This document shows positions 14,404 to 45,558 of a DNA stretch of 58,711 nucleotides, piece after piece (positions within the stretch are counted from its first letter, which is position 1; every line of letters begins with the position of its first letter). The DNA lies in the NCBI GenBank assembly GCA_002781185.1, contig PEUU01000020.1, forward strand, positions 1 to 58,711, written 5' to 3'. The notes under the pieces were generated by a model. That model saw only the letters and a list, made by a program, of their open reading frames with translations, made no database searches and was not told where the DNA came from. A program made the position numbers and the translations under genes. The DNA comes from Candidatus Jorgensenbacteria bacterium CG03_land_8_20_14_0_80_38_39. GTDB lineage: Bacteria > Patescibacteriota > Minisyncoccia > UBA6257 > GWB1-50-10.

Positions 14404-15234
14404 TTATTTGTAAGATTTCATAGCGTTGATGATTTTTTTAAATTCCCCGGCTTTTAAACTGGCTCCGCCAACCAAAGCGCCGTCAATTTCCGGGTATTTA
14501 AGAAAGGCGGCTAAATTTTCTGAATTAACAGAACCGCCGTACAATAATTTTGAATTTTGAATTTTGAATTTTGAATTAAGAAACGATTTTATAAACTTTG
14601 CCATTTCAGCGGTTTCGGCTGGTGCAGCGGCCCGGCCAGTGCCAATTGCCCAGACTGGCTCGTAAGCCACAATAAGAGAATTTTGAATTTTGAAATCCGA
14701 AATCCGAAGTCTGAAATCTGAAGTCTGAAATCTGAAGAGGTCTTTTTCTAATTGATTTTTTACATAATTCTTTGCCCATTTTATATTCCGCCCTGTTTCA
14801 TTTTTCATCTGCGTCAGTCCGCGTTCAGTCCACGTCAGTCCGCGTTCAGTCCGCGTTTGTCCGCGTTGAGAAGGTTCGCCAATACATAAAATCACTTTTA
14901 AGCCAGCGCAGAGAGCGGCAATGATTTTTTTATTAATCATTTCATCGGTTTCTTTTAAATAAATTCTCCTTTCCGAATGGCCGACAATAACATATTTAAC
15001 TCCCAGATTTTTAAGCATCTGGGAAGAAATTTCTCCGGTGTAAGCGCCGCTTTCGGCCCAAAAAACATCTTGAGCCGCCAGCGAAGCTTTTTTTAAAATT
15101 TTTGAAATCGAAGATAAAAATACAAAAGGCGGGGCAATAATAATATTTTCTTTGTCTATCGCCCGAGCCAAATTAAGCGCTTTTTGCTCCTCAAAGGGAT
15201 TCATCTTCCAATTGGCAATTATGATTTTCTTCAT
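14404..15234 (-). CDS. tpiA: Triosephosphate isomerase carrying repeat-encoded insertions
   Basis: NWKMN, VGHSERR, AYEPVWAIGTG and YGGSV motifs are present. There are 69 residues between CIGE and AYEPVWAIGTG, versus 34 in E. coli TPI from memory. The extra residues (QRGQTRTERGLTWTERGLTQ and FRFQTSDFRLRISDFKIQNS) are encoded by tandem repeats. Confidence 0.9.
   Translation of the reverse strand: MKKIIIANWKMNPFEEQKALNLARAIDKENIIIAPPFVFLSSISKILKKASLAAQDVFWAESGAYTGEISSQMLKNLGVKYVIVGHSERRIYLKETDEMINKKIIAALCAGLKVILCIGEPSQRGQTRTERGLTWTERGLTQMKNETGRNIKWAKNYVKNQLEKDLFRFQTSDFRLRISDFKIQNSLIVAYEPVWAIGTGRAAAPAETAEMAKFIKSFLNSKFKIQNSKLLYGGSVNSENLAAFLKYPEIDGALVGGASLKAGEFKKIINAMKSYK
14548..14578. repeat. Heptamer tandem array (gaatttt x4) inside tpiA
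   Basis: gaattttgaattttgaattttgaatt encodes NSKFKIQNSK. Confidence 0.85.
14679..14740. repeat. Heptamer tandem array (gaaNtNt x about 9) inside tpiA
   Basis: gaattttgaattttgaaatccgaaatccgaagtctgaaatctgaagtctgaaatctgaag. It gives a 21-nt / 7-aa periodic peptide DFRFQTS-DFRLRIS-DFKIQNS. It resembles the arms of 16S insertion 6. Confidence 0.85.
14809..14867. repeat. GCGT-rich 10-11 bp tandem units (cagtccgcgtt) inside tpiA
   Basis: Bases 14828-14865 are 34/38 identical to 30281-30318 in 16S insertion 3, by hand alignment. Confidence 0.85.
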
Positions 15235-28100: not shown

Positions 28101-28262
28101 TAGAGCAAAGCGAATTAAAAACTTTTTTGTTGTCCCAATAATCGTGCCTCGCTAATGTTCAGCACGATTTCGACAATAAATTTAATTAATCCACGCACAG
28201 CTTCCGCTACGCGTGCCTTGTTACGACTTCACCCATGTCACCGAGCTTACCCTAACCCAGCT

Positions 28263-28396
28263 TTTTGTTCTCAAGAACAAAAAGCGGCGCTGACTTACGT
28301 TGACTAAACGCTGACCCACGCAGAATTTCTTCCGCGTCGGTCTGCGTAATGTCTGCGTTCTTCCGCGAGCTTTTTGCGCTTCAGCGCAAAAAGCTG
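28263..28396 (-). other. 16S insertion 1, tip of helix 44 (about 134 nt, no ORF)
   Basis: It is flanked by cccagc/gctggg. Two terminal mini-hairpins (ctttttgttc-tcaa-gaacaaaaag and ctttttgcgc-ttca-gcgcaaaaag) enclose an imperfect hairpin of acgc/gcgt-rich units. Confidence 0.75.
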
Positions 28397-28764
28397 GGCT
28401 TTAGGTACTCCCGGCTCCCTTGGTGTGACGGGCAGTGAGTACAGGACTCGAGAACGTATTCACCGCGGCGTGCTGATCCGCGATTACTAGCGATTCCGGC
28501 TTCATGAGGGCGAGTTGCAGCCCTCAATTCGAACTGAGACCGAGTTTGATGGGATTAGCTCCGCCTTACGGCTTAGCAACCCATTGTCCCGGCCATTGTA
28601 ACATGAGTGTCGCCCAGGGCATCAAAGGGCCATGCTGATTTGACGTCGTCCTCACCTTCCTCCGTCTATACGACGGCAGTCTCTTCTGACACTTATAACA
28701 GAAGACAAGGGTTGCGCATGTTTCCCCATTGAAGGGAGCGCCTCACGGCACATGCTGACGGCCA

Positions 28765-29699
28765 TATTATTCCATTATTACTAATGGTATGGACTATACC
28801 ATCACCCTCTTCTTTTAAGAAAAAGAAGGGGGGACCGGCGTTTTATTCTTTATTTTACAAAAGAATAAAATCTCTAAGGTCTTTTTGAGATTAAGTCTCT
28901 ACGGGGTATGAATACTGATTTTTGTAATTTTAATGAATACGGAAAAATTAAGGAAAGAAATTTTTTAGTCTCTAATCTAGAAAAATACAAACAAAAAGTT
29001 TTAGCGCTATGATAATTATAGATTTTTATTCTCCGAAAACCTAACGATTGTATAAGTATTCTGTCTTGTTCTGCCTCCTCTTTATTGCTATAAACAATAC
29101 GACAATCGCTATAAAAATCTTTTGCCACAGAACCATCTCCATCAAATCTGCCTGCCATATAAGGCGAGATCAGTTTTCTGACAATAAAATTACTTAGATT
29201 ATTCTCTAATCCCTTAAATTCCCTCAACAAAGGACGACTATTTACATATAAATGATACGCTTTGGTGCGTCTTTTAAATTTATCTGGTCTGTAAATATAA
29301 AGTTTTAATCTTTTCTCGGGGAAAAATCTCAGAAAAAATTCACGAAATTTATCTATTAACAAAGTATTAGTATTACTTATACCAATACTACTTCCCCAAT
29401 AATAACCATCTGCGCACCACAAACCTAATATATAAGCATCGTCTTTTGTCTTAAAATTCCAAAAATCAGTATTCATACTTCCCACGGTATTACCCATCTG
29501 TTCGCTTCGCGAACACGCTGATTTACGCTGATTAATACGCTGATAAACGCTGATAAAAATTCCGCGTAAATCCGCGTCAGCGCCAAAGGCGCTAAAATCC
29601 GCGTTTATCCGTGTGTTTTACGAAGTAAAATGATTAGGGCTTCACCGTTATGAGCCAGTTTTTCATTCTAAATTTCTCTAGAATGGGTCGACATTTCAA
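28765..29699 (-). mobile_element. 16S insertion 2 (E. coli position about 1050), about 935 nt intron-like element with LAGLIDADG ORF
   Basis: The conserved ctgacggccat | … | catgcagcacctgt is split, and the boundary is ambiguous by the 4-nt ccat repeat. The insertion contains several hairpins and an acgctgat/atccgcgt repeat block at 29515-29613. Confidence 0.75.
28874..29497 (-). CDS. LAGLIDADG homing endonuclease (inside the 16S insertion)
   Basis: 207 aa with two LAGLIDADG-like motifs (ILGLWCADGYYWG and YMAGRFDGDGSV). It is on the same strand as the rRNA. Confidence 0.8.
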   Translation of the reverse strand: MGNTVGSMNTDFWNFKTKDDAYILGLWCADGYYWGSSIGISNTNTLLIDKFREFFLRFFPEKRLKLYIYRPDKFKRRTKAYHLYVNSRPLLREFKGLENNLSNFIVRKLISPYMAGRFDGDGSVAKDFYSDCRIVYSNKEEAEQDRILIQSLGFRRIKIYNYHSAKTFCLYFSRLETKKFLSLIFPYSLKLQKSVFIPRRDLISKRP

Positions 29700-29839
29700 C
29701 CATGCAGCACCTGTCCCGGCGTCCTTGAAAGAAAATTTTCCTTTCGGAAAATCGTCACCGGGATTTCAAGCCCTGGTAAGGTTCCTCGCTTACCATCGAA
29801 TTAAACCTCATGTTCCACCGCTTGTGCGAGTCCCCGTCT

Positions 29840-29871
<32 letters not shown>

Positions 29872-29967
29872 TCCCAGGCGGTCCACTTAATGCGTTAGCT
29901 ACGCCACTCCGAGGGTCGATACTCGAAACAGCTAGTGGACATCGTTTAGGGCGTGGACTACAAGGGT

Positions 29968-30337
29968 CAAGTTGTTACTTCGTAACAATCGCAGACTTAC
30001 GCTGACTTCACGCTGACTTACGCAGAAGTAAACGTAGACACGAGTTACGCGACACAGACATTTCTGCTGTGTTCTGTATATCGCTATACAGGTCGGACTA
30101 TATCTTCACCCGTTTAAATTTTACTTGTGTAAAATTTTGACGGGGTTTGGCGTGTAGTCTCTACGGAGTCCTGTTAGTCATAACAGGTTCCCTCGGTGTT
30201 TTCCATAAAATGGATTTTCACCGATATAGCCAAATTACACTTTAATATTGCTACTAAATGAGACACCATTGTTGCTTCGTGTCCGCGTCAGTCCGCGTTA
30301 AGTCCGCGTCTGTCTGCGGTTTCGCGAAGCGAAACGT
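29968..30337 (-). other. 16S insertion 3, within the 785-806 block (about 370 nt, no ORF)
   Basis: It splits ggactacaagggt | atctaatcc. The ends carry inverted GCGT-rich repeat arms (29989-30035 versus 30279-30320) and terminal mini-hairpins (gttgttac-ttc-gtaacaa and gtttcgc-gaa-gcgaaac). Confidence 0.75.
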
Positions 30338-30653
30338 ATCTAATCCTTTTTGCTCCCCACGCTTTCGCGCCTCAGGGTCAGGAACGTCCCAGCAGAATGC
30401 CTTCGCCTTTGGTGTTCCAGCCGATATCAACGGATTTCACCCCTACACCGGCTGTTCCATCTGCCTCTAACGCCCTCAATCCCGCTCATCTCTTCAGCGG
30501 CCTTAGGGTTAAGCCCTAAGATTTAACTGAAGATGCAGCGGGACCCCTACGCGCCCTTTACGCCCAATAAATCCGGATAACGCTTGGGGCCTTCGTATTA
30601 CCGCGGCTGCTGGCACGAAGTTTGCCACCCCTTATTCTATTCCTACTATCAAT

Positions 30654-30789
30654 CGTGTCTCGCTATCGCTCATCACCTTACGATTCCAAACTACGAATGC
30701 ATCCGAATCTACGAAAATAAATTTCAAATTTGTAGATTCGCATCAATTTGTAGTTTTGGATCGGTAGTGTCGAACAATAGTGAGACACG
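30654..30789 (-). other. 16S insertion 4, V3 region (about 136-nt hairpin)
   Basis: The outer stem is cgtgtctc…gagacacg. The inner arms are gattccaaactacgaatgcatccgaatctacgaa (30682-30715) and its imperfect complement (30729-30763). Confidence 0.7.
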
Positions 30790-31044
30790 ACTTTATCGGA
30801 ATAAAAAGCAGTTTACAACCCTAGGGCCTTCATCCTGCACGCGGCGTCGCTCGATCAGGCTTTCGCCCATTGTCGAATATTCTCGACTGCTGCCTCCCGT
30901 AGGAGTACGTTCCGTGTCTCAGTAACGTCGTTGGGGAATAGCCTCTCAGCTCCCCTACCCGTCGTCGCCTTGGTGGGCCATTACCTCACCAACAAGCTGA
31001 TAGGACCTAGGCCGCTCCCGAAGCGACTTGCGTCTTTACTGGTA

Positions 31045-31205
31045 ATTGGATTTTATTCGCAAGTCGCTTCAGAATTTCTAATTTCTAATTTTTAATTTCT
31101 AATAAATGATTTAATGACTTAATGTTTAAAAATTAAATCACTAAAAATTGATTGAAAATTTAAAATTGAAAATTGAAAATTGAAGAACTTGTAAACAAAA
31201 TCCAA
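31045..31205 (-). other. 16S insertion 5, helix 10 / V2 region (about 160 nt)
   Basis: The stem is ctggtaattggatttt / aaaatccaactaccag. The arms are heptamer arrays aatttct x4 and attgaaa x5. Confidence 0.65.
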
Positions 31206-31295
31206 CTACCAGACTATAGGATATTACCCAATCTTTCGACTGGCTATTTCCTACTTTGGGGTATGTACCAAGGTGTTACTAACTCGTTCGCCACT

Positions 31296-31730
31296 GTCAG
31301 ACATCAGACATTAGAAATCGGATTTCGGATTTTTTGAATTAATGAATTAATTTGTTTTGATTCCACTTTATATTCTTCGATTAATGCATCGCAATTTCCA
31401 CAATTTACATTGGAAAAGTTTAAAATTCTTATCTGCCACAAATGCGTAATTGTTTCATCTGAGGAACCAAGCGCCATATAAAGAAAACGTTTGAATTCGT
31501 TTTGCGAGTTCTTTTTTGCGAATCCCTCAGTAATCTGAGCGGAAATCGCTTTGGCTGAATTACAAACTTGAGATTTTAATTCAAATTCGTTTCGTGGCAA
31601 TTGATTTACCAGTTCATAAATTCTCGGCAATAAATCCATTGCCCTTTTATAAATTTGTAATTCCGTTACGTCTTTCATTAAATCCAATTATATCACCCGA
31701 AATCTGAACTCTGAAGTCTGATATCTGACC
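31296..31730 (-). mobile_element. 16S insertion 6, helix 6 / V1 (about 435 nt) carrying a four-helix-bundle ORF
   Basis: It splits cgttcgccact | cgttcgacttgcatg. Inverted arms gtcagacatcagacattagaaatcggatttcgg (31296-) and ccgaaatctgaactctgaagtctgatatctgac (-31730) can form a long stem around the ORF. Confidence 0.8.
31304..31687 (-). CDS. Four-helix-bundle protein of the 23S rRNA intervening-sequence protein family
   Basis: 127 aa. IYKRAMDLLPRIYELVNQLPRNEFELKSQVCNSAKAISAQITEGFAK…GSSDETITHL resembles the S23p / IVS four-helix-bundle family. It is paralogous to 43238-43621. Confidence 0.75.
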   Translation of the reverse strand: MDLMKDVTELQIYKRAMDLLPRIYELVNQLPRNEFELKSQVCNSAKAISAQITEGFAKKNSQNEFKRFLYMALGSSDETITHLWQIRILNFSNVNCGNCDALIEEYKVESKQINSLIQKIRNPISNV

Positions 31731-31956
31731 GTTCGACTTGCATGCCTTATCCACGCCGCCAGCGTTCATCCTGGACCAGGATCAAATCCTCTAAGAAATG
31801 CGGATGAACGCAGATATATACGCAGATAAACACAGATAAACAAGTTATCCGCGTAGACCCGCGTTTTAATCCACGTAAATCCGCGTCAAAATTGGGACAA
31901 CAAAAAAATCTTTAATTTTTAATTGTAAATGTTCATTCAGCATCATTCCGAATATC

Positions 31957-35645: not shown

Positions 35646-36152
35646 TTATTTAACATTAAAACGCCTTTTTAGCTCGTCAGCGCCCTCAATGATATCCACA
35701 ATCATCGGCAGGCAATATTTCTCTATTTTCTGTTCCACAATCCATTCCCAGACATCTGCGGCTAACTTCTGAGATCCTAACCATACGCTTTTCTGCAAGG
35801 GAATAAAATTGTATGCCCTCAATAACCTTGTAAGGGCGATTCTTTTGGAGTTAAAATTCACCGGAATATCAAAACTCAATATGTACCATTGCCCTTTTTC
35901 ATTAAATACTGGGACGGCCGGGTGATAACGACGAAACAGTTTTTTGCCGCTGGGGGTAAGGATAATCTTTTTTTGATGCGCCTGAAGAAAACCTCGTTCA
36001 ATGAGTCGTTTTAAACTTTGACGCAAATATTTTTTTCGTCTGTGACGCTCAATAAATTCCTCAACAAGAAACGTTCCCGCTTCACCAAGGTCAGAGAAAA
36101 ATTCGCTCCACTCGCGTATATGTCTTCGAGCATCTCGTGATGTTTTAGCCAT
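35646..36152 (-). CDS. PaaX-like protein: winged HTH + Cas2-like ferredoxin-fold domain (paralog A)
   Basis: The ATG at 36152 is preferred (the track start at 36170 is a TTG inside the palindrome). The wHTH segment is LKRLIERGFLQAHQKKIILTPSGKKLF. The Cas2/PaaX-central-like motif is WYILSFDIPVNFNSKRIALTRLLRAYNFIPLQKSVWLG. Confidence 0.6.
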   Translation of the reverse strand: MAKTSRDARRHIREWSEFFSDLGEAGTFLVEEFIERHRRKKYLRQSLKRLIERGFLQAHQKKIILTPSGKKLFRRYHPAVPVFNEKGQWYILSFDIPVNFNSKRIALTRLLRAYNFIPLQKSVWLGSQKLAADVWEWIVEQKIEKYCLPMIVDIIEGADELKRRFNVK

Positions 36153-36164
36153 AATAATTGCTAT

Positions 36165-36198
36165 CCTCAATATTGTATCATATGATACAAGATTGAGG
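36165..36198. promoter_or_regulatory. 34-bp palindrome (one mismatched pair) 13 nt upstream of paralog A; candidate operator
   Basis: cctcaatattgtatcatatgatacaagattgagg shares the frame CCTCAA-N3-TGTA-N-CATATG-N-TACA-N3-TTGAGG with 35543-35576. Confidence 0.6.
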
Positions 36199-42056: not shown

Positions 42057-43049
42057 TTATCTTTTTCTTTTAAGAGCCTTCTTAACAGCCATCTTTATAT
42101 GCGATATCCCTATTCCATATTTCTCCAAAAGTTGGGCGGGTGAACCTGATTCACCAAAGACATTTTTGATGCCGACGAATTCAATGGGCACTGGCTGTTT
42201 TTGGGCTAAAACCTCACTGACCGCGCTTCCCAATCCTCCGTAAACTTGATGTTCTTCCACTGTTACTATGGCTCTATATTTTTTAGCCAATTCAACAATC
42301 GTTTTTTCATCAAGAGGTTTAATAGTATGACAATTGACAACGACGACGCCGATTTTTTCTTTTTCCAATTCTTGAGCAGCCAAAAGAGCGTTGAATAAAA
42401 TCGGACCGCAGCCAATAATAGCCACCTGCGGCTTTCGCGATTGATAAAAAATTTCTGCTTTCCCGGGAATGAATGACGTTTCTTCAGTTGTTAAAACCGG
42501 AGTTTTTTCCCGGTTGAATCTTAAATAAACCGGCCCCCAGATTTTTGCCGCGGCAACCGTGGCTTTTTTAGCTTCAATCGCGTCGCAAGGAACAATAACT
42601 TTCATATTGGGCATTGAACGCATCAAAACAATATCTTCGGTTGCCTGATGAGTAGCGCCGTCAGGACCAACAGAAATACCCGAATGATGGCCGGCAATTT
42701 TCACATTAGAATCATTGTAAGCAATCGTTGTCCGGATTTGCTCCCAATTTCTTCCCGGCGAAAAAACCGCGTAAGAAGAGATAAAAGGAATTTTGCCGGA
42801 GATGCCTAAACCGGCGGCAATGGTTGCCATATTTTGTTCGGCGATTCCGCATTCAAAAAATCTTTCGGGAAATTTTTTGGCAAAGGCTTCGCAACGAGTG
42901 GATTCAATTAAGTCCGCGCACAAAACAACCACATTAGGATTTTCTTCACCGGCAATCAAAAGACCTTCACCATAGCCATCGCGCGTCGGTTTTTGCTCGA
43001 TATCGGCATCAAATAGTTTGGGGTTCAATTTGAGATTTGGGTTGATCAT
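42057..43049 (-). CDS. Transketolase, C-terminal half (pyrimidine-binding + C-terminal domains)
   Basis: 330 aa with motifs ECGIAEQNM and GPDGATHQ. Confidence 0.9.
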   Translation of the reverse strand: MINPNLKLNPKLFDADIEQKPTRDGYGEGLLIAGEENPNVVVLCADLIESTRCEAFAKKFPERFFECGIAEQNMATIAAGLGISGKIPFISSYAVFSPGRNWEQIRTTIAYNDSNVKIAGHHSGISVGPDGATHQATEDIVLMRSMPNMKVIVPCDAIEAKKATVAAAKIWGPVYLRFNREKTPVLTTEETSFIPGKAEIFYQSRKPQVAIIGCGPILFNALLAAQELEKEKIGVVVVNCHTIKPLDEKTIVELAKKYRAIVTVEEHQVYGGLGSAVSEVLAQKQPVPIEFVGIKNVFGESGSPAQLLEKYGIGISHIKMAVKKALKRKR

Positions 43050-43190
43050 AAAATTTTTGTCCCGATTTTGTATCCCGCATAGCGGGATTTACAAAATCGA
43101 GGATCCACGATTTCTTTAATCCCGATCGTGAAGCGATCGTGGATAGAAATCGGGAGATTAAGTTTTAAATCAGGATTCAACATAGGAATT

Positions 43191-43250
43191 AGTAGTTAGG
43201 AGTTAGTAGTTAGTAGTTAGTAGTTAGTAGTTAGAAATTAGGAGTTAGTT
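43191..43250. repeat. Heptamer array agtagtt/aggagtt x8; left arm of the four-helix-bundle cassette
   Basis: agtagttaggagttagtagttagtagttagtagttagtagttagaaattaggagtt is the inverse of the taggagttagt units at 43630-43673. Confidence 0.85.
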
Positions 43251-43621
43251 TGTGAAGCGGATCTCAGTACTTGCGACAATTTATTTAACATTCGCATAAT
43301 CTCATTAAGTAATGAAATGATAGAATCGTACTCACTTATTGATATATAGCTCAATTCCTTTGATAACTCTAATTGAGTTTCTAATTCTGCACCAGAGGCA
43401 AAAGCGATATTAATAAATTGAGAATATTCTTTTGCGTGTCTCCGTAAATATCCTTCGGCAACATTGGAAGGAATCCCCACCGCCGCTCGTCTCATCTGAC
43501 TTACCAAACCATATGTCTCTGATTTGGGAAAATTTTTCGTTAACTTATAAACTTCTAAAACTAATTTCATAGATTTTTTCCAAACAATTAATTCTCTAAA
43601 TGATTTTGTTTTTGAATTCAT
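43238..43621 (-). CDS. Four-helix-bundle protein of the 23S rRNA intervening-sequence protein family
   Basis: 127 aa. FRELIVWKKSMKLVLEVYKLTKNFPKSETYGLVSQMRRAAVGIPSNVAEGY…GAELETQLELS is a classic pattern of this family. Confidence 0.85.
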   Translation of the reverse strand: MNSKTKSFRELIVWKKSMKLVLEVYKLTKNFPKSETYGLVSQMRRAAVGIPSNVAEGYLRRHAKEYSQFINIAFASGAELETQLELSKELSYISISEYDSIISLLNEIMRMLNKLSQVLRSASQTNS

Positions 43622-43629
43622 ATTTCTCG

Positions 43630-43673
43630 CTCCTAAATACTAACTCCTAGATACTAACTCCTAAACACTAAAT
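43630..43673. repeat. 14-bp units aactcctaNatact x3; right arm of the four-helix-bundle cassette
   Basis: ctcctaaatactaactcctagatactaactcctaaacacta. Confidence 0.85.
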
Positions 43674-43675
43674 CA

Positions 43676-44536
43676 TTATTGATGCTCTGATTTAATTCTC
43701 CTGCCAAGTGTCCTTAGTTCTTCTAATGCTTTTTTTGCTTCTTCTTTATTCGGCGGTTTGCCATGCCATTCAAATTTATTTTCCATAAAATCAACGCCTT
43801 TGCCGGGAATGGTATGGGCGATAATAACCGTTGGTTTTTCAAAAATAGCGACGGCTTCATTAACCGCATCAACCAATTCCCTCATATTATGGCCGTCAAT
43901 TTCAATCACCTGCCAATTAAAGGCTTCATATTTTTCTCTTAAAGGTTCCAGGGGCATAACATTTTCGGTAAAACCGTCAATTTGAATATTATTACGGTCA
44001 ATGACCGCGGTTAAATTACTTAAACGATATTTGGCGGCAAACATTACCGCTTCCCAAATATTACCTTCTTGTTGTTCGCCATCAGACATCAAACAATAAA
44101 TGCGATATTTTTTTCTATCAAGTCTCGCGGCTAAAGCCATTCCTATTGCCTGCGATAAACCGCAACCCAAAGGTCCGGAAGTAGTTTCAATGCCCGGCAA
44201 AGAACCCCGATGAGGATGACCTTGGAGCCGGGAATTTATTTTTCTCAAGGTTCCCAATTCTTCTAAAGGAAAATAACCGGCAAAAGCCAAAACCGCGTAA
44301 AGAGCCGGACAAATATGACCGTTGGACAAAACCAATCTGTCCCGCTCCGGCCAATGCGGTTCGCTCGGCCGATGATTTAAAATGTGAAAATAAAAAGCCG
44401 CCAAAATATCAGCCATCCCCAAAGAACCGGCTGAATGCCCCGAACCAGCTTCAACAAGCATTCTGATAATTGCCTGTCTAATTTCATTGGCTTTTTCTTC
44501 TAATTTTTTCAGTTTTTCTTCGTGAAGTGGTTCCAT
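43676..44536 (-). CDS. Transketolase, N-terminal half (thiamine-diphosphate binding)
   Basis: 286 aa with motifs GHSAGSLGMADI, SNGH and SDGEQQEGN. Confidence 0.9.
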   Translation of the reverse strand: MEPLHEEKLKKLEEKANEIRQAIIRMLVEAGSGHSAGSLGMADILAAFYFHILNHRPSEPHWPERDRLVLSNGHICPALYAVLAFAGYFPLEELGTLRKINSRLQGHPHRGSLPGIETTSGPLGCGLSQAIGMALAARLDRKKYRIYCLMSDGEQQEGNIWEAVMFAAKYRLSNLTAVIDRNNIQIDGFTENVMPLEPLREKYEAFNWQVIEIDGHNMRELVDAVNEAVAIFEKPTVIIAHTIPGKGVDFMENKFEWHGKPPNKEEAKKALEELRTLGRRIKSEHQ

Positions 44537-44655: not shown

Positions 44656-44694
44656 GTTCTAAAACTTGGTTCTAAAACTTGGTTTTAAAACATT
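44656..44694. repeat. 13-bp direct repeat x2.5
   Basis: gttctaaaacttg gttctaaaacttg gttttaaaacatt. Confidence 0.8.
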
Positions 44695-44739: not shown

Positions 44740-45354
44740 ATGCGAAATAATGACAATAAGAAAATGATACAAAGAGTTGATATCCGTAATATCCGGAAGA
44801 ACTCAAGAGCTTACAAGATTCTAAAATACCTTGCTCTCGGTTCTGGATTCATTATCCTCTCTACCATCTCGCCCTATGGTGGCGCTAGAGTGGTGAAAAG
44901 CCTTATTCAGAATTATCTTAGACGGAAGCGTTTTGAAAAATACCGATTCTTAACTGATTTAAAAAATTTACAAAAAAGAGATTTAATTGATTATCAAGAT
45001 CTCGGAAATGGCAATGTTAAGATAATTATCACCGCTCGGGGAAAACAAAAAGTTCTTCTCAACAATATTGATGAGATAAAACTAAAGAAACAAAAACGAT
45101 GGGATGGTAAATGGAGATTGATAATATTTGATATTCCTCATAGCCGCAAAGGAGCGCGCGACGCCTTCCGAAAAATATTGAAAAATTTGGGCTTCTATCC
45201 CCTTCAGAAAAGTGTTTTCATCACGCCTTATCCCTGTGAAAATGAAATAGATTTTATTGCCTCAATCTTTGACATCCGCCAAAATGTGCTCCTGCTCTAC
45301 GTAAACAATTTTGAAGGCGAAGAAAAACTAAAATATCACTTCAAAATTAAATAA
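44740..45354 (+). CDS. PaaX-like protein: winged HTH + Cas2-like domain (paralog B)
   Basis: 204 aa with an N-terminal hydrophobic segment. The wHTH segment is LKNLQKRDLIDYQDLGNGNVKIIITARGKQKV. The Cas2/PaaX-like motif is WDGKWRLIIFDIPHSRKGARDAFRKILKNLGFYPLQKSVFITPYP. Confidence 0.65.
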   Translation: MRNNDNKKMIQRVDIRNIRKNSRAYKILKYLALGSGFIILSTISPYGGARVVKSLIQNYLRRKRFEKYRFLTDLKNLQKRDLIDYQDLGNGNVKIIITARGKQKVLLNNIDEIKLKKQKRWDGKWRLIIFDIPHSRKGARDAFRKILKNLGFYPLQKSVFITPYPCENEIDFIASIFDIRQNVLLLYVNNFEGEEKLKYHFKIK

Positions 45355-45358
45355 ACTC

Positions 45359-45400
45359 TAGAATGTCACCGTTAGAATGTCACCGTTAGAATGTCACCGT
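45359..45400. repeat. 14-bp direct repeat x3, each carrying a TGTCAC half-site
   Basis: tagaatgtcaccgt occurs three times, starting 5 nt after the paralog B stop. Confidence 0.9.
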
Positions 45401-45426
45401 TATTAAGCCATGGCTTAATAACGGTG
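45395..45426. repeat. Perfect 32-bp palindrome downstream of paralog B
   Basis: caccgttattaagccatggcttaataacggtg has the same TGTCAC-N9-GCCATGGC frame as 44701-44738. Confidence 0.95.
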
Positions 45427-45558
45427 TAGTCAAAATATTTTACTTAAATATTTATTTAAATATTTTATCTACAAATATTTTATCTACAAATATTTTATCT
45501 GATATTTATATATTTATATTTAATATTTATCTGATATTTATCTAAATCCAATAAACTC

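Follow-up and report, generated by a model that had tools for sequence, protein, structure and literature searches.

Two small genes for proteins of the S23p, or four-helix-bundle, family are carried by a 58,711-nt stretch of DNA of Candidatus Jorgensenbacteria bacterium CG03_land_8_20_14_0_80_38_39 (contig PEUU01000020.1, positions 1 to 58,711; hereafter the window, which has a G+C content of 38%). One of them is inserted in the 16S rRNA gene and the other in the spacer between the two halves of a split transketolase gene, and each is enclosed by complementary arms built of tandem heptamers. We consider it probable, at roughly 0.7, that the two loci represent a single ancient hairpin cassette of the intervening sequence (IVS) type, which is not specific to rRNA and whose likely fate is cleavage by RNase III. 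The 16S copy corresponds, in helix 6, to the IVS of 23S helix 45 and belongs to a known kind, and the transketolase copy shows that design in the spacer of an mRNA; the operon cassette and a heptad rule that extends over the whole family are what is new.

Two cassettes of the same design

The first copy, cassette A, interrupts the 16S gene and is composed of the following parts, where ORF stands for open reading frame:

31296..31729, minus strand: cassette A, a 434-nt intervening sequence in the 16S gene, with boundaries GTCGAACG and AGTGGCGAACG
31695..31729, minus strand: 5' arm of cassette A, made up of five heptamers (G UCAGAUA UCAGACU UCAGAGU UCAGAUU UCGGGUG)
31296..31330, minus strand: 3' arm of cassette A, a series of heptamers whose core is UCYGA, pairing in register with the 5' arm
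31304..31678, minus strand: ORF A, an S23p / four-helix-bundle protein of 124 aa from the likelier ATG

The insert replaces what we take to be the tip of 16S helix 6 (E. coli numbering). On the RNA strand, GCAUGCAAGUCGAACG is followed across the first junction by GUCAGAUAUCAGACUUCAGAGUUCAGAUUUCGGGUG and then by the ORF, and UCCGAAAUCCGAUUUCUAAUGUCUGAUGUCUGAC is followed across the second junction by AGUGGCGAACGAG. The ends form an inverted repeat of 36 nt, 81% complementary (31293-31328 and 31697-31732), in which Tandem Repeats Finder (TRF) recognizes period-7 arrays at 31297-31319 and 31699-31728, and the pattern TCRGAN2TCRGAN2TCRGA occurs six times in the window against 0 expected. In the predicted RNA fold the ORF is enclosed by a terminal stem (z = -5.5). 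The stop codon of ORF A falls within the 3' arm. An alternative TTG start at 31687 gives a protein of 127 aa (31304-31687), for which an exact-sequence look-up returned no match; the translation from the ATG is identical to a database protein (P0001), which begins at that ATG. Cassette A thus resembles an IVS in lying at the tip of an rRNA helix and in having complementary ends that extend this helix, but it sits in the 16S gene and not in helix 25 or 45 of 23S rRNA.

The second copy, cassette B, is located between two genes of a sugar operon:

43676..44536, minus strand: tktN, the N-terminal half of transketolase and upstream host gene (Pfam Transketolase_N, 1.8e-60)
43186..43674, minus strand: cassette B, arms and ORF, the first 489 nt of the 626-nt tktN-tktC spacer
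43622..43674, minus strand: 5' arm of cassette B, with TAG every 7 nt (UUUAGUG UUUAGGAG UUAGUAU CUAGGAG UUAGUAU UUAGGAG)
43238..43621, minus strand: ORF B, an S23p / four-helix-bundle protein of 127 aa, whose last codons lie within the 3' arm
43186..43249, minus strand: 3' arm of cassette B, CTAACTM heptamers, with four CTAACTA units in the window
42057..43049, minus strand: tktC, the C-terminal half of transketolase and downstream host gene (Pfam Transket_pyr and Transketolase_C)

Cassette B starts 2 nt past the stop codon of tktN, and its 5' arm contains a Shine-Dalgarno-like GGAG ahead of the ATG of ORF B. The inverted repeat is longer here (43186-43238 and 43622-43674; 53 nt, again 81% complementary), and TRF assigns period 7 to 43189-43249 (8.7 copies) and period 14 to 43630-43671. 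All 14 occurrences of TAGN4TAGN4TAG in the window fall within this cassette, against 0.18 expected, and the predicted RNA fold again encloses the ORF in a terminal stem (z = -6.0). The inverted heptamer arrays that an earlier note on this DNA had described around both ORFs are confirmed by repeat detection. A consensus scan of the coding strand inside cassette B found neither a promoter-like nor a terminator-like site; the sole non-coding promoter-like site that it found on the minus strand of the tkt region is upstream of tktN. Cassette B would work like an IVS and yet is no rRNA IVS, its host being an interval between two protein-coding genes.

The identical ORF B protein is present on at least 24 contigs, each time between tktN and tktC. 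Ten aligned strains have the same cassette DNA apart from the 3' arm, in which the number of CTAACTA units ranges from 1 to 5, and such variation in otherwise identical strains shows slippage of the array.

In the remainder of the spacer, from cassette B to the start of tktC (43050-43185, minus strand), two strong hairpins are found, AUCCACGAUCG...CGAUCGGGAU and CGAUUUUGUAAAUCCCGC-UAU-GCGGGAUACAAAAUCG, which are kept in all strains compared. A similar motif, CGAUUUUGU...ACAAAAUCG, occurs upstream of the 16S gene in another genome (L015).

One protein family, two subfamilies

PF05635 and TIGR02436 are the models of the S23p family, also named "23S rRNA IVS protein" or four helix bundle protein. 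ORF A matches them at 3.4e-20 (72.7 bits, cut-off 33.8) and 1.7e-21 (76.5 bits, cut-off 24), and ORF B at 1.2e-39 (135.2 bits) and 7.4e-37 (125.9 bits); all four matches are above the curated cut-offs, in agreement with the family that the earlier note had proposed from the sequence. AlphaFold monomer models built on subfamily alignments have four helices each, with mean confidence (pLDDT) of 92 for ORF A and 94 for ORF B. For both models the best match in the PDB is Xcc0516 (2GSC), with template modelling (TM) scores of 0.83-0.97 (about 0.87-0.92 for ORF A and about 0.86-0.97 for ORF B), followed by BT_0352 (2RLD) and then by Avd, a protein of diversity-generating retroelements (DGRs), with TM 0.72-0.89. 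ORF B is 41% identical to 2GSC, and this match is also found at the sequence level (7e-24). No match was obtained with the PADLOC defence models.

The two proteins are only about 20% identical to each other (phmmer 3e-11), and for this reason they are not close paralogues; the word "paralogous" in the earlier note was too strong. They constitute one family with two subfamilies, A for the 16S copy and B for the tkt copy, and are not recent duplicates. Within the window no third or near-identical four-helix-bundle gene was found. The family is large, since one database search gave more than 2,000 relatives for ORF B alone.

Subfamily A in rRNA, tRNA and intron contexts

A protein search with ORF A returned 63 relatives, among which those with 65-76% identity form a tight group, and at the first five relative loci all five genes lie inside the 16S 5' domain on the rRNA strand. 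A metagenome scan gave a further 80 subfamily-A loci (43-74% identity), and 23 of the 85 loci are at exactly the helix-6 site of the window. Extraction of the junction succeeded at 23 relative loci, and in every one the boundaries are exactly those seen in the window; together with the window these loci represent 19 distinct sequences, which were aligned without gaps and anchored on the junctions. The aligned arms form a 35-bp helix of five heptamers in which 89.6% of the cells are paired, against at most 47% in slid registers. Compensatory changes, on both sides of the pair, are found at 11 of the 35 positions, and the covariation score is above that of all 500 shuffles. The TC.GA (UC.GA) core positions of the heptamers are invariant among the 19 sequences. 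Moreover, among the non-Watson-Crick positions at the 16S site, those of the sense-strand G·U type outnumber those of the A·C type by 46 to 16 (p = 2e-4), and this excess of G·U points to selection on the transcribed strand.

Subfamily A also occupies other RNA genes. Rfam classification of 13 loci puts the cassettes of L180 and L172 in 23S, or large subunit (LSU), rRNA, the LSU relatives being 43-50% identical. The junction of L180 ends in CCGAAGCUACGGAU, which we take, by eye and from the 23S sequence, to be in helix 45, the classical IVS site; L180-L182 and L193 were placed at this site, with junctions read by eye. Three cassettes (L148, L170 and L157) are inside apparent P6 or P8 loops of group I introns, as judged by eye against the intron of the window, four (L128, L130, L134 and L136) lie between tmRNA and tRNA-Leu or just 5' of tRNA genes, and at least one (L139) is in an ordinary operon. 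The arms of the subfamily are made of about five units with a TCRGA core.

At one locus (L153, 2031-2555) a second gene, encoding 174 aa with the NIAEGY family motif, lies directly 3' of the subfamily-A cassette; the two would be a tandem pair of four-helix-bundle genes.

Subfamily B in operon spacers

Relatives of ORF B with 71-74% identity are found in the same sugar operon at two junctions, tktN-tktC (L017, L018) and tktC-pfkB (L019, L021, L023). Arrays of the TTAGKAG and CTAACTM types fill the spacers in every sugar-operon relative examined, and in several of them the upstream stop codon is itself the array's first TAG and the arrays continue from it as far as the downstream ATG. The comparison of tkt loci in relatives, which the earlier note had proposed as a check, shows the arms at either junction. 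In two of the genomes, L021 and L022, tktN and tktC are separate genes although no cassette lies between them, so that the split of tkt cannot be put down to the cassette.

In these two genomes the cassette lies one junction farther downstream, and the "empty" tktN-tktC spacer of L021 (1387-1471) and that of L022 contain a solo heptamer array, AAGATTT AAGATAT AAGATTT AAGAGTT, possibly what is left of an arm.

A scan of GTDB species genomes gave 506 relatives, of which 80 loci (51-68% identity) were kept, spread across the Candidate Phyla Radiation (CPR); arm statistics were computed on a set of 84 loci, these 80 and four known from the previous search. On average 4.4 TAGs occur in the 60 nt upstream of the gene, against about 0.9 expected. 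The distance from one TAG to the next is 7 in 181 of about 290 cases, that from one CTA to the next on the downstream side is 7 in 195, and no other trinucleotide comes near TAG and CTA in 7-nt spacing. The remaining four positions of the unit vary by locus (TAGCCAC, TAGCTTG, TAGGCAG, TAGTGGG and others), and the variation is mirrored by its complement in the partner arm of the same locus: the median arm-arm complementarity is 14 for arms of one locus and 7 for arms of different loci. These values are an ungapped score, used in place of RNAduplex flank energies, which were dropped as noisy (-40 to -90 kcal/mol in shifted controls).

No rRNA is contained in any of the 80 scan loci. Neighbouring genes are co-directional with the cassette gene in 74 of 83 cases upstream and 71 of 82 downstream, with gaps of about 40 and 32 nt, and the junctions are diverse, including tktC-pfkB, LemA and an HtpX-type peptidase, a histidine kinase and Fpg, CorA and CysS, and PrgI and an unknown gene.

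Rules common to the two subfamilies

Period-7 complementary arms stand beside PF05635 genes at about 140 independent loci of the two subfamilies, so that gene and arms are inherited together. In the arms, self-identity amounts to 0.41-0.47 at a lag of 7 nt and to 0.36-0.39 at a lag of 14 nt, compared with about 0.25 for ORFs and control DNA. The core of the repeat is a property of the subfamily: among the loci scored, subfamily A has 49 cores of the CRG type and 0 of the TAG type, and subfamily B has 56 of the TAG type and 0 of the CRG type. It follows the protein and not the context, as the A-type cassette in an operon (L139) has CGGA and a B-type cassette next to tRNA-Pro (L083) has TAG; the window alone shows the two cores side by side in a single host. 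Unit counts per arm have their mode at five in subfamily A (26 and 27 of 61 for the two arms; 15 of 20 at the 16S site) and at four to five in subfamily B (47 and 51 of 79).

Array-flanked genes beyond the CPR

A tblastn search of plasmids returned 27 records, mainly cyanobacterial. Of nine plasmid loci inspected, four have complementary arms built of repeats, two have direct arrays, and one each has a plain inverted repeat, an array on the 3' side only and a classical rRNA IVS. In the nrdB/nrdA interval of Nostoc edaphicum, GTAGGGA arrays lie upstream and TCCCTAC arrays downstream of a gene that is antisense to both neighbours; in N. punctiforme the arms are TCAGGAG/CTCCTGA at one locus and GGGTGTR/CYACACC at another. 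In Picosynechococcus (L192) the cassette is located between cas10 and cmr3 on a plasmid. The plain inverted repeat belongs to Stanieria (L191) and the single 3' array to Calothrix (L186), where the gene is again antisense to both neighbours. Direct arrays are found in Gemmatirosa and in Pseudanabaena (L187), in the latter between cas6 and cas4, with about 15 CTAAAAG units upstream and about nine CCAAAAG units downstream. The rRNA case is that of Azospirillum lipoferum (L193), a 23S helix-45 IVS with GACGGAT/GACAGAG heptamers in both arms.

Array-flanked four-helix-bundle genes are thus seen inside CRISPR-Cas operons of cyanobacterial plasmids in two of these cases (L187 and L192).

A hairpin probably cut from the host transcript

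The explanation that we favour for both loci is a hairpin carried in the host transcript. Its loop is the S23p gene (PF05635), its stem is about 35-50 bp long and each arm consists of about five tandem heptamers. The cassette sits where an extra hairpin is tolerated, that is at the tip of an rRNA helix, in tRNA and tmRNA spacers, in probable group I intron loops and in the spacers between cistrons. Because the orientation is the same as that of the host in nearly all CPR loci, the cassette would be transcribed within the host transcript; the exceptions are about one in eight of the neighbour genes of subfamily B, and two cyanobacterial loci. By analogy with the IVSs of Salmonella, Leptospira and Coxiella, RNase III would then cut the stem. 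In the 16S gene the cut would remove the insert from helix 6, and a cut in the tkt operon would split the transcript into tktN, four-helix-bundle and tktC messages, freeing a monocistronic mRNA for the four-helix-bundle protein. The construction of the arms from repeats would let the length of the stem slip, with pairing kept in any 7-nt register. Cleavage by RNase III, expression of the protein and its binding to the arms are steps that we infer.

Several observations weigh against this explanation. The 58.7-kb window contains no RNase III signature. The S23p protein can be dispensable, as in Coxiella it is apparently not made and its ORF is decaying (PMC4990558). The rule of a hairpin in the host transcript is not universal, given the antisense genes of Nostoc edaphicum and Calothrix and the direct arrays of Pseudanabaena and Gemmatirosa. 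Finally, an excess of sense-strand G·U was expected in the stems of subfamily B and was not found (60 G·U against 76 A·C, p = 0.2); complementarity in this subfamily could be a matter of maintenance in the DNA, or of weak selection acting on the RNA.

Since each subfamily keeps its own core, the core would be read by something specific to the cassette, most simply the encoded protein. The subfamily cores and the five-unit mode suggest a pentameric protein that reads its own arms. A general form of this idea, which we put forward as a tentative proposal with the odds clearly against it, is that PF05635 proteins are sequence-specific readers of their own arrays, one pentamer for about five heptamers, with the core (UAG/CUA or UCRGA) as the code of the subfamily. 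If this were true, gene and arms would be a self-contained module controlling the processing or translation of an rRNA, an intron, a tRNA precursor or an operon mRNA, and the copying of the module to new sites might find its explanation in the same protein-arm interaction. The S23p family would gain a function more than 30 years after the first IVS ORFs, together with a mechanistic link to Avd, the partner of the DGR reverse transcriptase. We know of no function for S23p / four-helix-bundle proteins outside DGRs; four regularities, namely the complementary arms of 7-nt period that accompany the gene, the roughly five units per arm, the subfamily-specific core and the recurrence of one module in many contexts, now provide a hypothesis on it that is testable in vitro.

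Alternative explanations

The alternative that survives best, unlikely as we consider it, is an element that is mobile or recombines at the level of DNA. The arms would then be terminal inverted repeats like those of a miniature inverted-repeat transposable element (MITE) with a passenger gene, the four-helix-bundle protein would be cargo or a DNA-binding accessory, and the complementarity of the arms would be maintained by DNA hairpins or quasipalindrome correction and not by selection on RNA. This explanation stays alive because subfamily B, having no bias of G·U over A·C in its arms, is without an RNA-strand signature. It is also favoured by the alternative junctions within one operon and the many unrelated junctions elsewhere, by gene-less solo arrays, both in the "empty" tktN-tktC spacer of L021 and L022 and inside the tpiA gene of the window, and by the shifts of arm copy number through slippage. 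Of the features of a transposable element, however, the copies of the window have the terminal inverted repeats but show no transposase, no target-site duplication and no near-identical copies within the window. The cassette holds no mobility gene, since its single ORF matches PF05635 only and a second gene would not fit; inspection by eye of the few filled and empty junctions that were compared revealed no target-site duplication; no relative was found in the viral contigs searched; and the two copies of the window are very divergent. The stem of the 16S site, moreover, bears the marks of selection on RNA. The four-helix-bundle protein has diverged about as much as the flanking tktN and tktC (70-75% versus 65-79% identity), and divergence in step with these housekeeping genes points to long vertical residence. 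The earlier note had suggested a mobile cassette. Mobility on an evolutionary scale is indirectly supported by the alternative junctions and the many contexts, and to this extent the suggestion stands; the junctions compared, the gene content and the vertical-like divergence do not bear out a currently mobile element.

A somewhat more doubtful alternative is that the arrays are mainly binding sites of a ring protein, with each of five subunits holding one single-stranded RNA heptamer, by analogy with TRAP; the protein would compete with formation of the stem and in this way regulate either its own translation or how the host RNA is processed. The subfamily-specific core, kept over deep divergence and in different contexts, speaks for such a function, as does the peak of units per arm at five in subfamily A and four to five in subfamily B despite easy slippage. 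Five chains are present in the deposited structures of solved relatives, and these relatives (2GSC, Avd) are described as homopentamers (PMC4990558 among the sources); the Avd pentamer contacts a defined RNA element of the DGR ribonucleoprotein. Other points speak against it. Five units may just reflect an optimal stem length of about 35 bp, conservation of the core could be the result of descent of the whole cassette, a TAG every 7 nt in mRNA spacers also gives stop codons in three frames, and the comparison with TRAP is no more than an analogy.

A coincidental placement of two arrays beside two unrelated small genes, in a slippage-prone genome rich in arrays, is very improbable: similar arrays do occur elsewhere in the window (in tpiA, and with a period of 10-11 nt around other 16S insertions), but the TAG arrays do not, the period-7 complementary arms recur at the independent loci counted above, and the same design is found in cyanobacteria and alphaproteobacteria. 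We reject the identification of the ORFs as Avd accessory proteins of a DGR, the least credible of all, since the weak matches of ORF B to bAvd and DivGenRetAVD are below the cut-offs (PF22296, 37.7 against 40; NF033474, 40.7 against 80) in spite of the Avd-like fold, the neighbours are rRNA sequence and two tkt halves, and no reverse-transcriptase YxDD motif is present in the long ORFs of the window.

Relation to known systems

IVSs with an S23p ORF, terminal inverted repeats and excision by RNase III are classical (PMC4990558). Cassette A shares with the 23S helix-45 IVSs of Leptospira, Coxiella burnetii, Brucella and Haemophilus the protein family, the ORF in the loop of a terminal stem and the position at a helix tip, but it is in 16S helix 6 and has five regular units per arm. 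In the Coxiella IVS, too, the arms contain tandem heptamers (GACAGAT), whose number varies by strain; RNase III cuts at the first of 2-3 such heptamers upstream of the ORF (PMC4990558). Unlike the decaying ORF of Coxiella, ORF A is well conserved, with 65-76% identity over many CPR lineages. The likeness to the RNase III-processed stems of 23S IVSs that the earlier note had drawn is supported, with relatives in 23S helix 45 itself (L180, L193) and with covariation and G·U excess in the 16S stem; its further claim that the gene-plus-stem design is not rRNA-specific is supported by about 80 CPR mRNA spacers, by tRNA and tmRNA sites, by apparent intron loops and by cyanobacterial plasmids.

Insertion sequences in the rRNA of CPR bacteria were reportedly described by Brown et al. 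in 2015. The 16S copy is one of the CPR rRNA insertions treated by Tsurumaki et al. 2024 (PMC11270868), who report 23S_rRNA_IVP ORFs in 16S and 23S insertions; a search of the paper for these terms turned up neither inverted or tandem repeats nor "helix bundle". Models of ORF A and ORF B have a predicted four-helix-bundle fold in common with Xcc0516 (2GSC), BT_0352 (2RLD) and Avd (4DWL, 8UB7). The solved relatives are homopentamers, and Avd binds structured RNA; it differs in having a reverse transcriptase partner, which ORF A and ORF B are without.

TRAP is an 11-subunit ring that reads (G/U)AG triplets spaced 5-6 nt apart. The likeness is one of analogy, a ring of identical subunits and a short core at fixed spacing, and the UAG of subfamily B is among the triplets of TRAP; the fold is unrelated, the subunits are 11 rather than 5 and the spacing is 5-6 nt rather than 7. 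The short tandemly repeated repetitive (STRR) sequences of heterocystous cyanobacteria are heptanucleotide tandem repeats of intergenic regions, and the four-helix-bundle genes of Nostoc plasmids are likewise flanked by tandem 7-nt arrays. An incomplete literature search found no link between STRR and PF05635 and no description of heptad arms as a family rule, of subfamily cores, of a modal five units or of operon-spacer cassettes; on heptamer repeats in CPR genomes and on four-helix-bundle genes with inverted repeats outside rRNA, it found nothing beyond the Coxiella paper.

These cassettes bear on the question of why CPR rRNA genes are so often interrupted and on a possible post-transcriptional uncoupling of cistrons in CPR operons. 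For annotation, heptamer arrays beside a small gene flag the PF05635 family, and inserts of about 430 nt in 16S helix 6 affect the design of primers and probes as well as rRNA assembly.

The 16S gene and other arrays of the window

Several insertions stretch the 16S gene of the window, and for this reason it is about 3.6 kb long. Besides cassette A they include a group I intron (Rfam, 30074-30283), a LAGLIDADG ORF and the second feature below:

28181..31795, minus strand: 16S rRNA gene, about 3.6 kb, with an Rfam small subunit (SSU) match at 28181-31331, the 5' part read directly and the 5' end near TTAGAGGATTTGATCCTGG
31040..31200, minus strand: second 16S insertion, without an ORF, a 157-nt insert by Rfam, forming a single long hairpin (z = -11.4)

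The arms of this ORF-less insert are also period-7 arrays (UUCAAUU / AAUUAGA; TRF arrays at 31073-31103 and 31151-31184), and it may be a miniature or decayed relative of cassette A. The other 16S insertions, namely the group I intron, the one containing the LAGLIDADG ORF and one near the 3' end, are bracketed by complementary arrays whose period is 10-11 nt instead of 7 (28265-28400, 29500-29600, 29965-30060 and 30290-30345, minus strand; examples are GACGCGGACU and GCGUAAGUCA). The whole 16S gene is enclosed by an exact 15-nt inverted pair, TTGGGACAACAAAAA, at 28124-28138 (minus strand) and 31892-31906 (plus strand), possibly a stem for the processing of pre-16S RNA; when one mismatch was allowed, at least two matches were obtained in 5 of 100 shuffles.

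The triose-phosphate isomerase gene tpiA (14404-15234, minus strand) is an intact ORF of 276 aa that holds three in-frame tandem arrays (14546-14577, 14678-14736 and 14812-14867), which encode stretches such as LFRFQTSDFRLRISDFKIQNS; the Pfam TIM match of the gene comes in two parts. Its heptamers TCAAAAT and TCAGAYT/TCGGATT are the same units as those of the 5' arm of cassette A, and its 11-mer AACGCGGACTG resembles the arrays beside the 16S group I intron.

Two further paralogous ORFs are located at 44740-45354 (plus strand) and 35646-36170 (minus strand), one of which adjoins the tkt operon. For the ORF at 44740-45354, matches to PaaX_M and weak matches to CRISPR_Cas2 are recorded at identical loci, and arrays with a period of 13 to 15 nt flank it at 44656-44691, 45359-45402 and 45433-45500.

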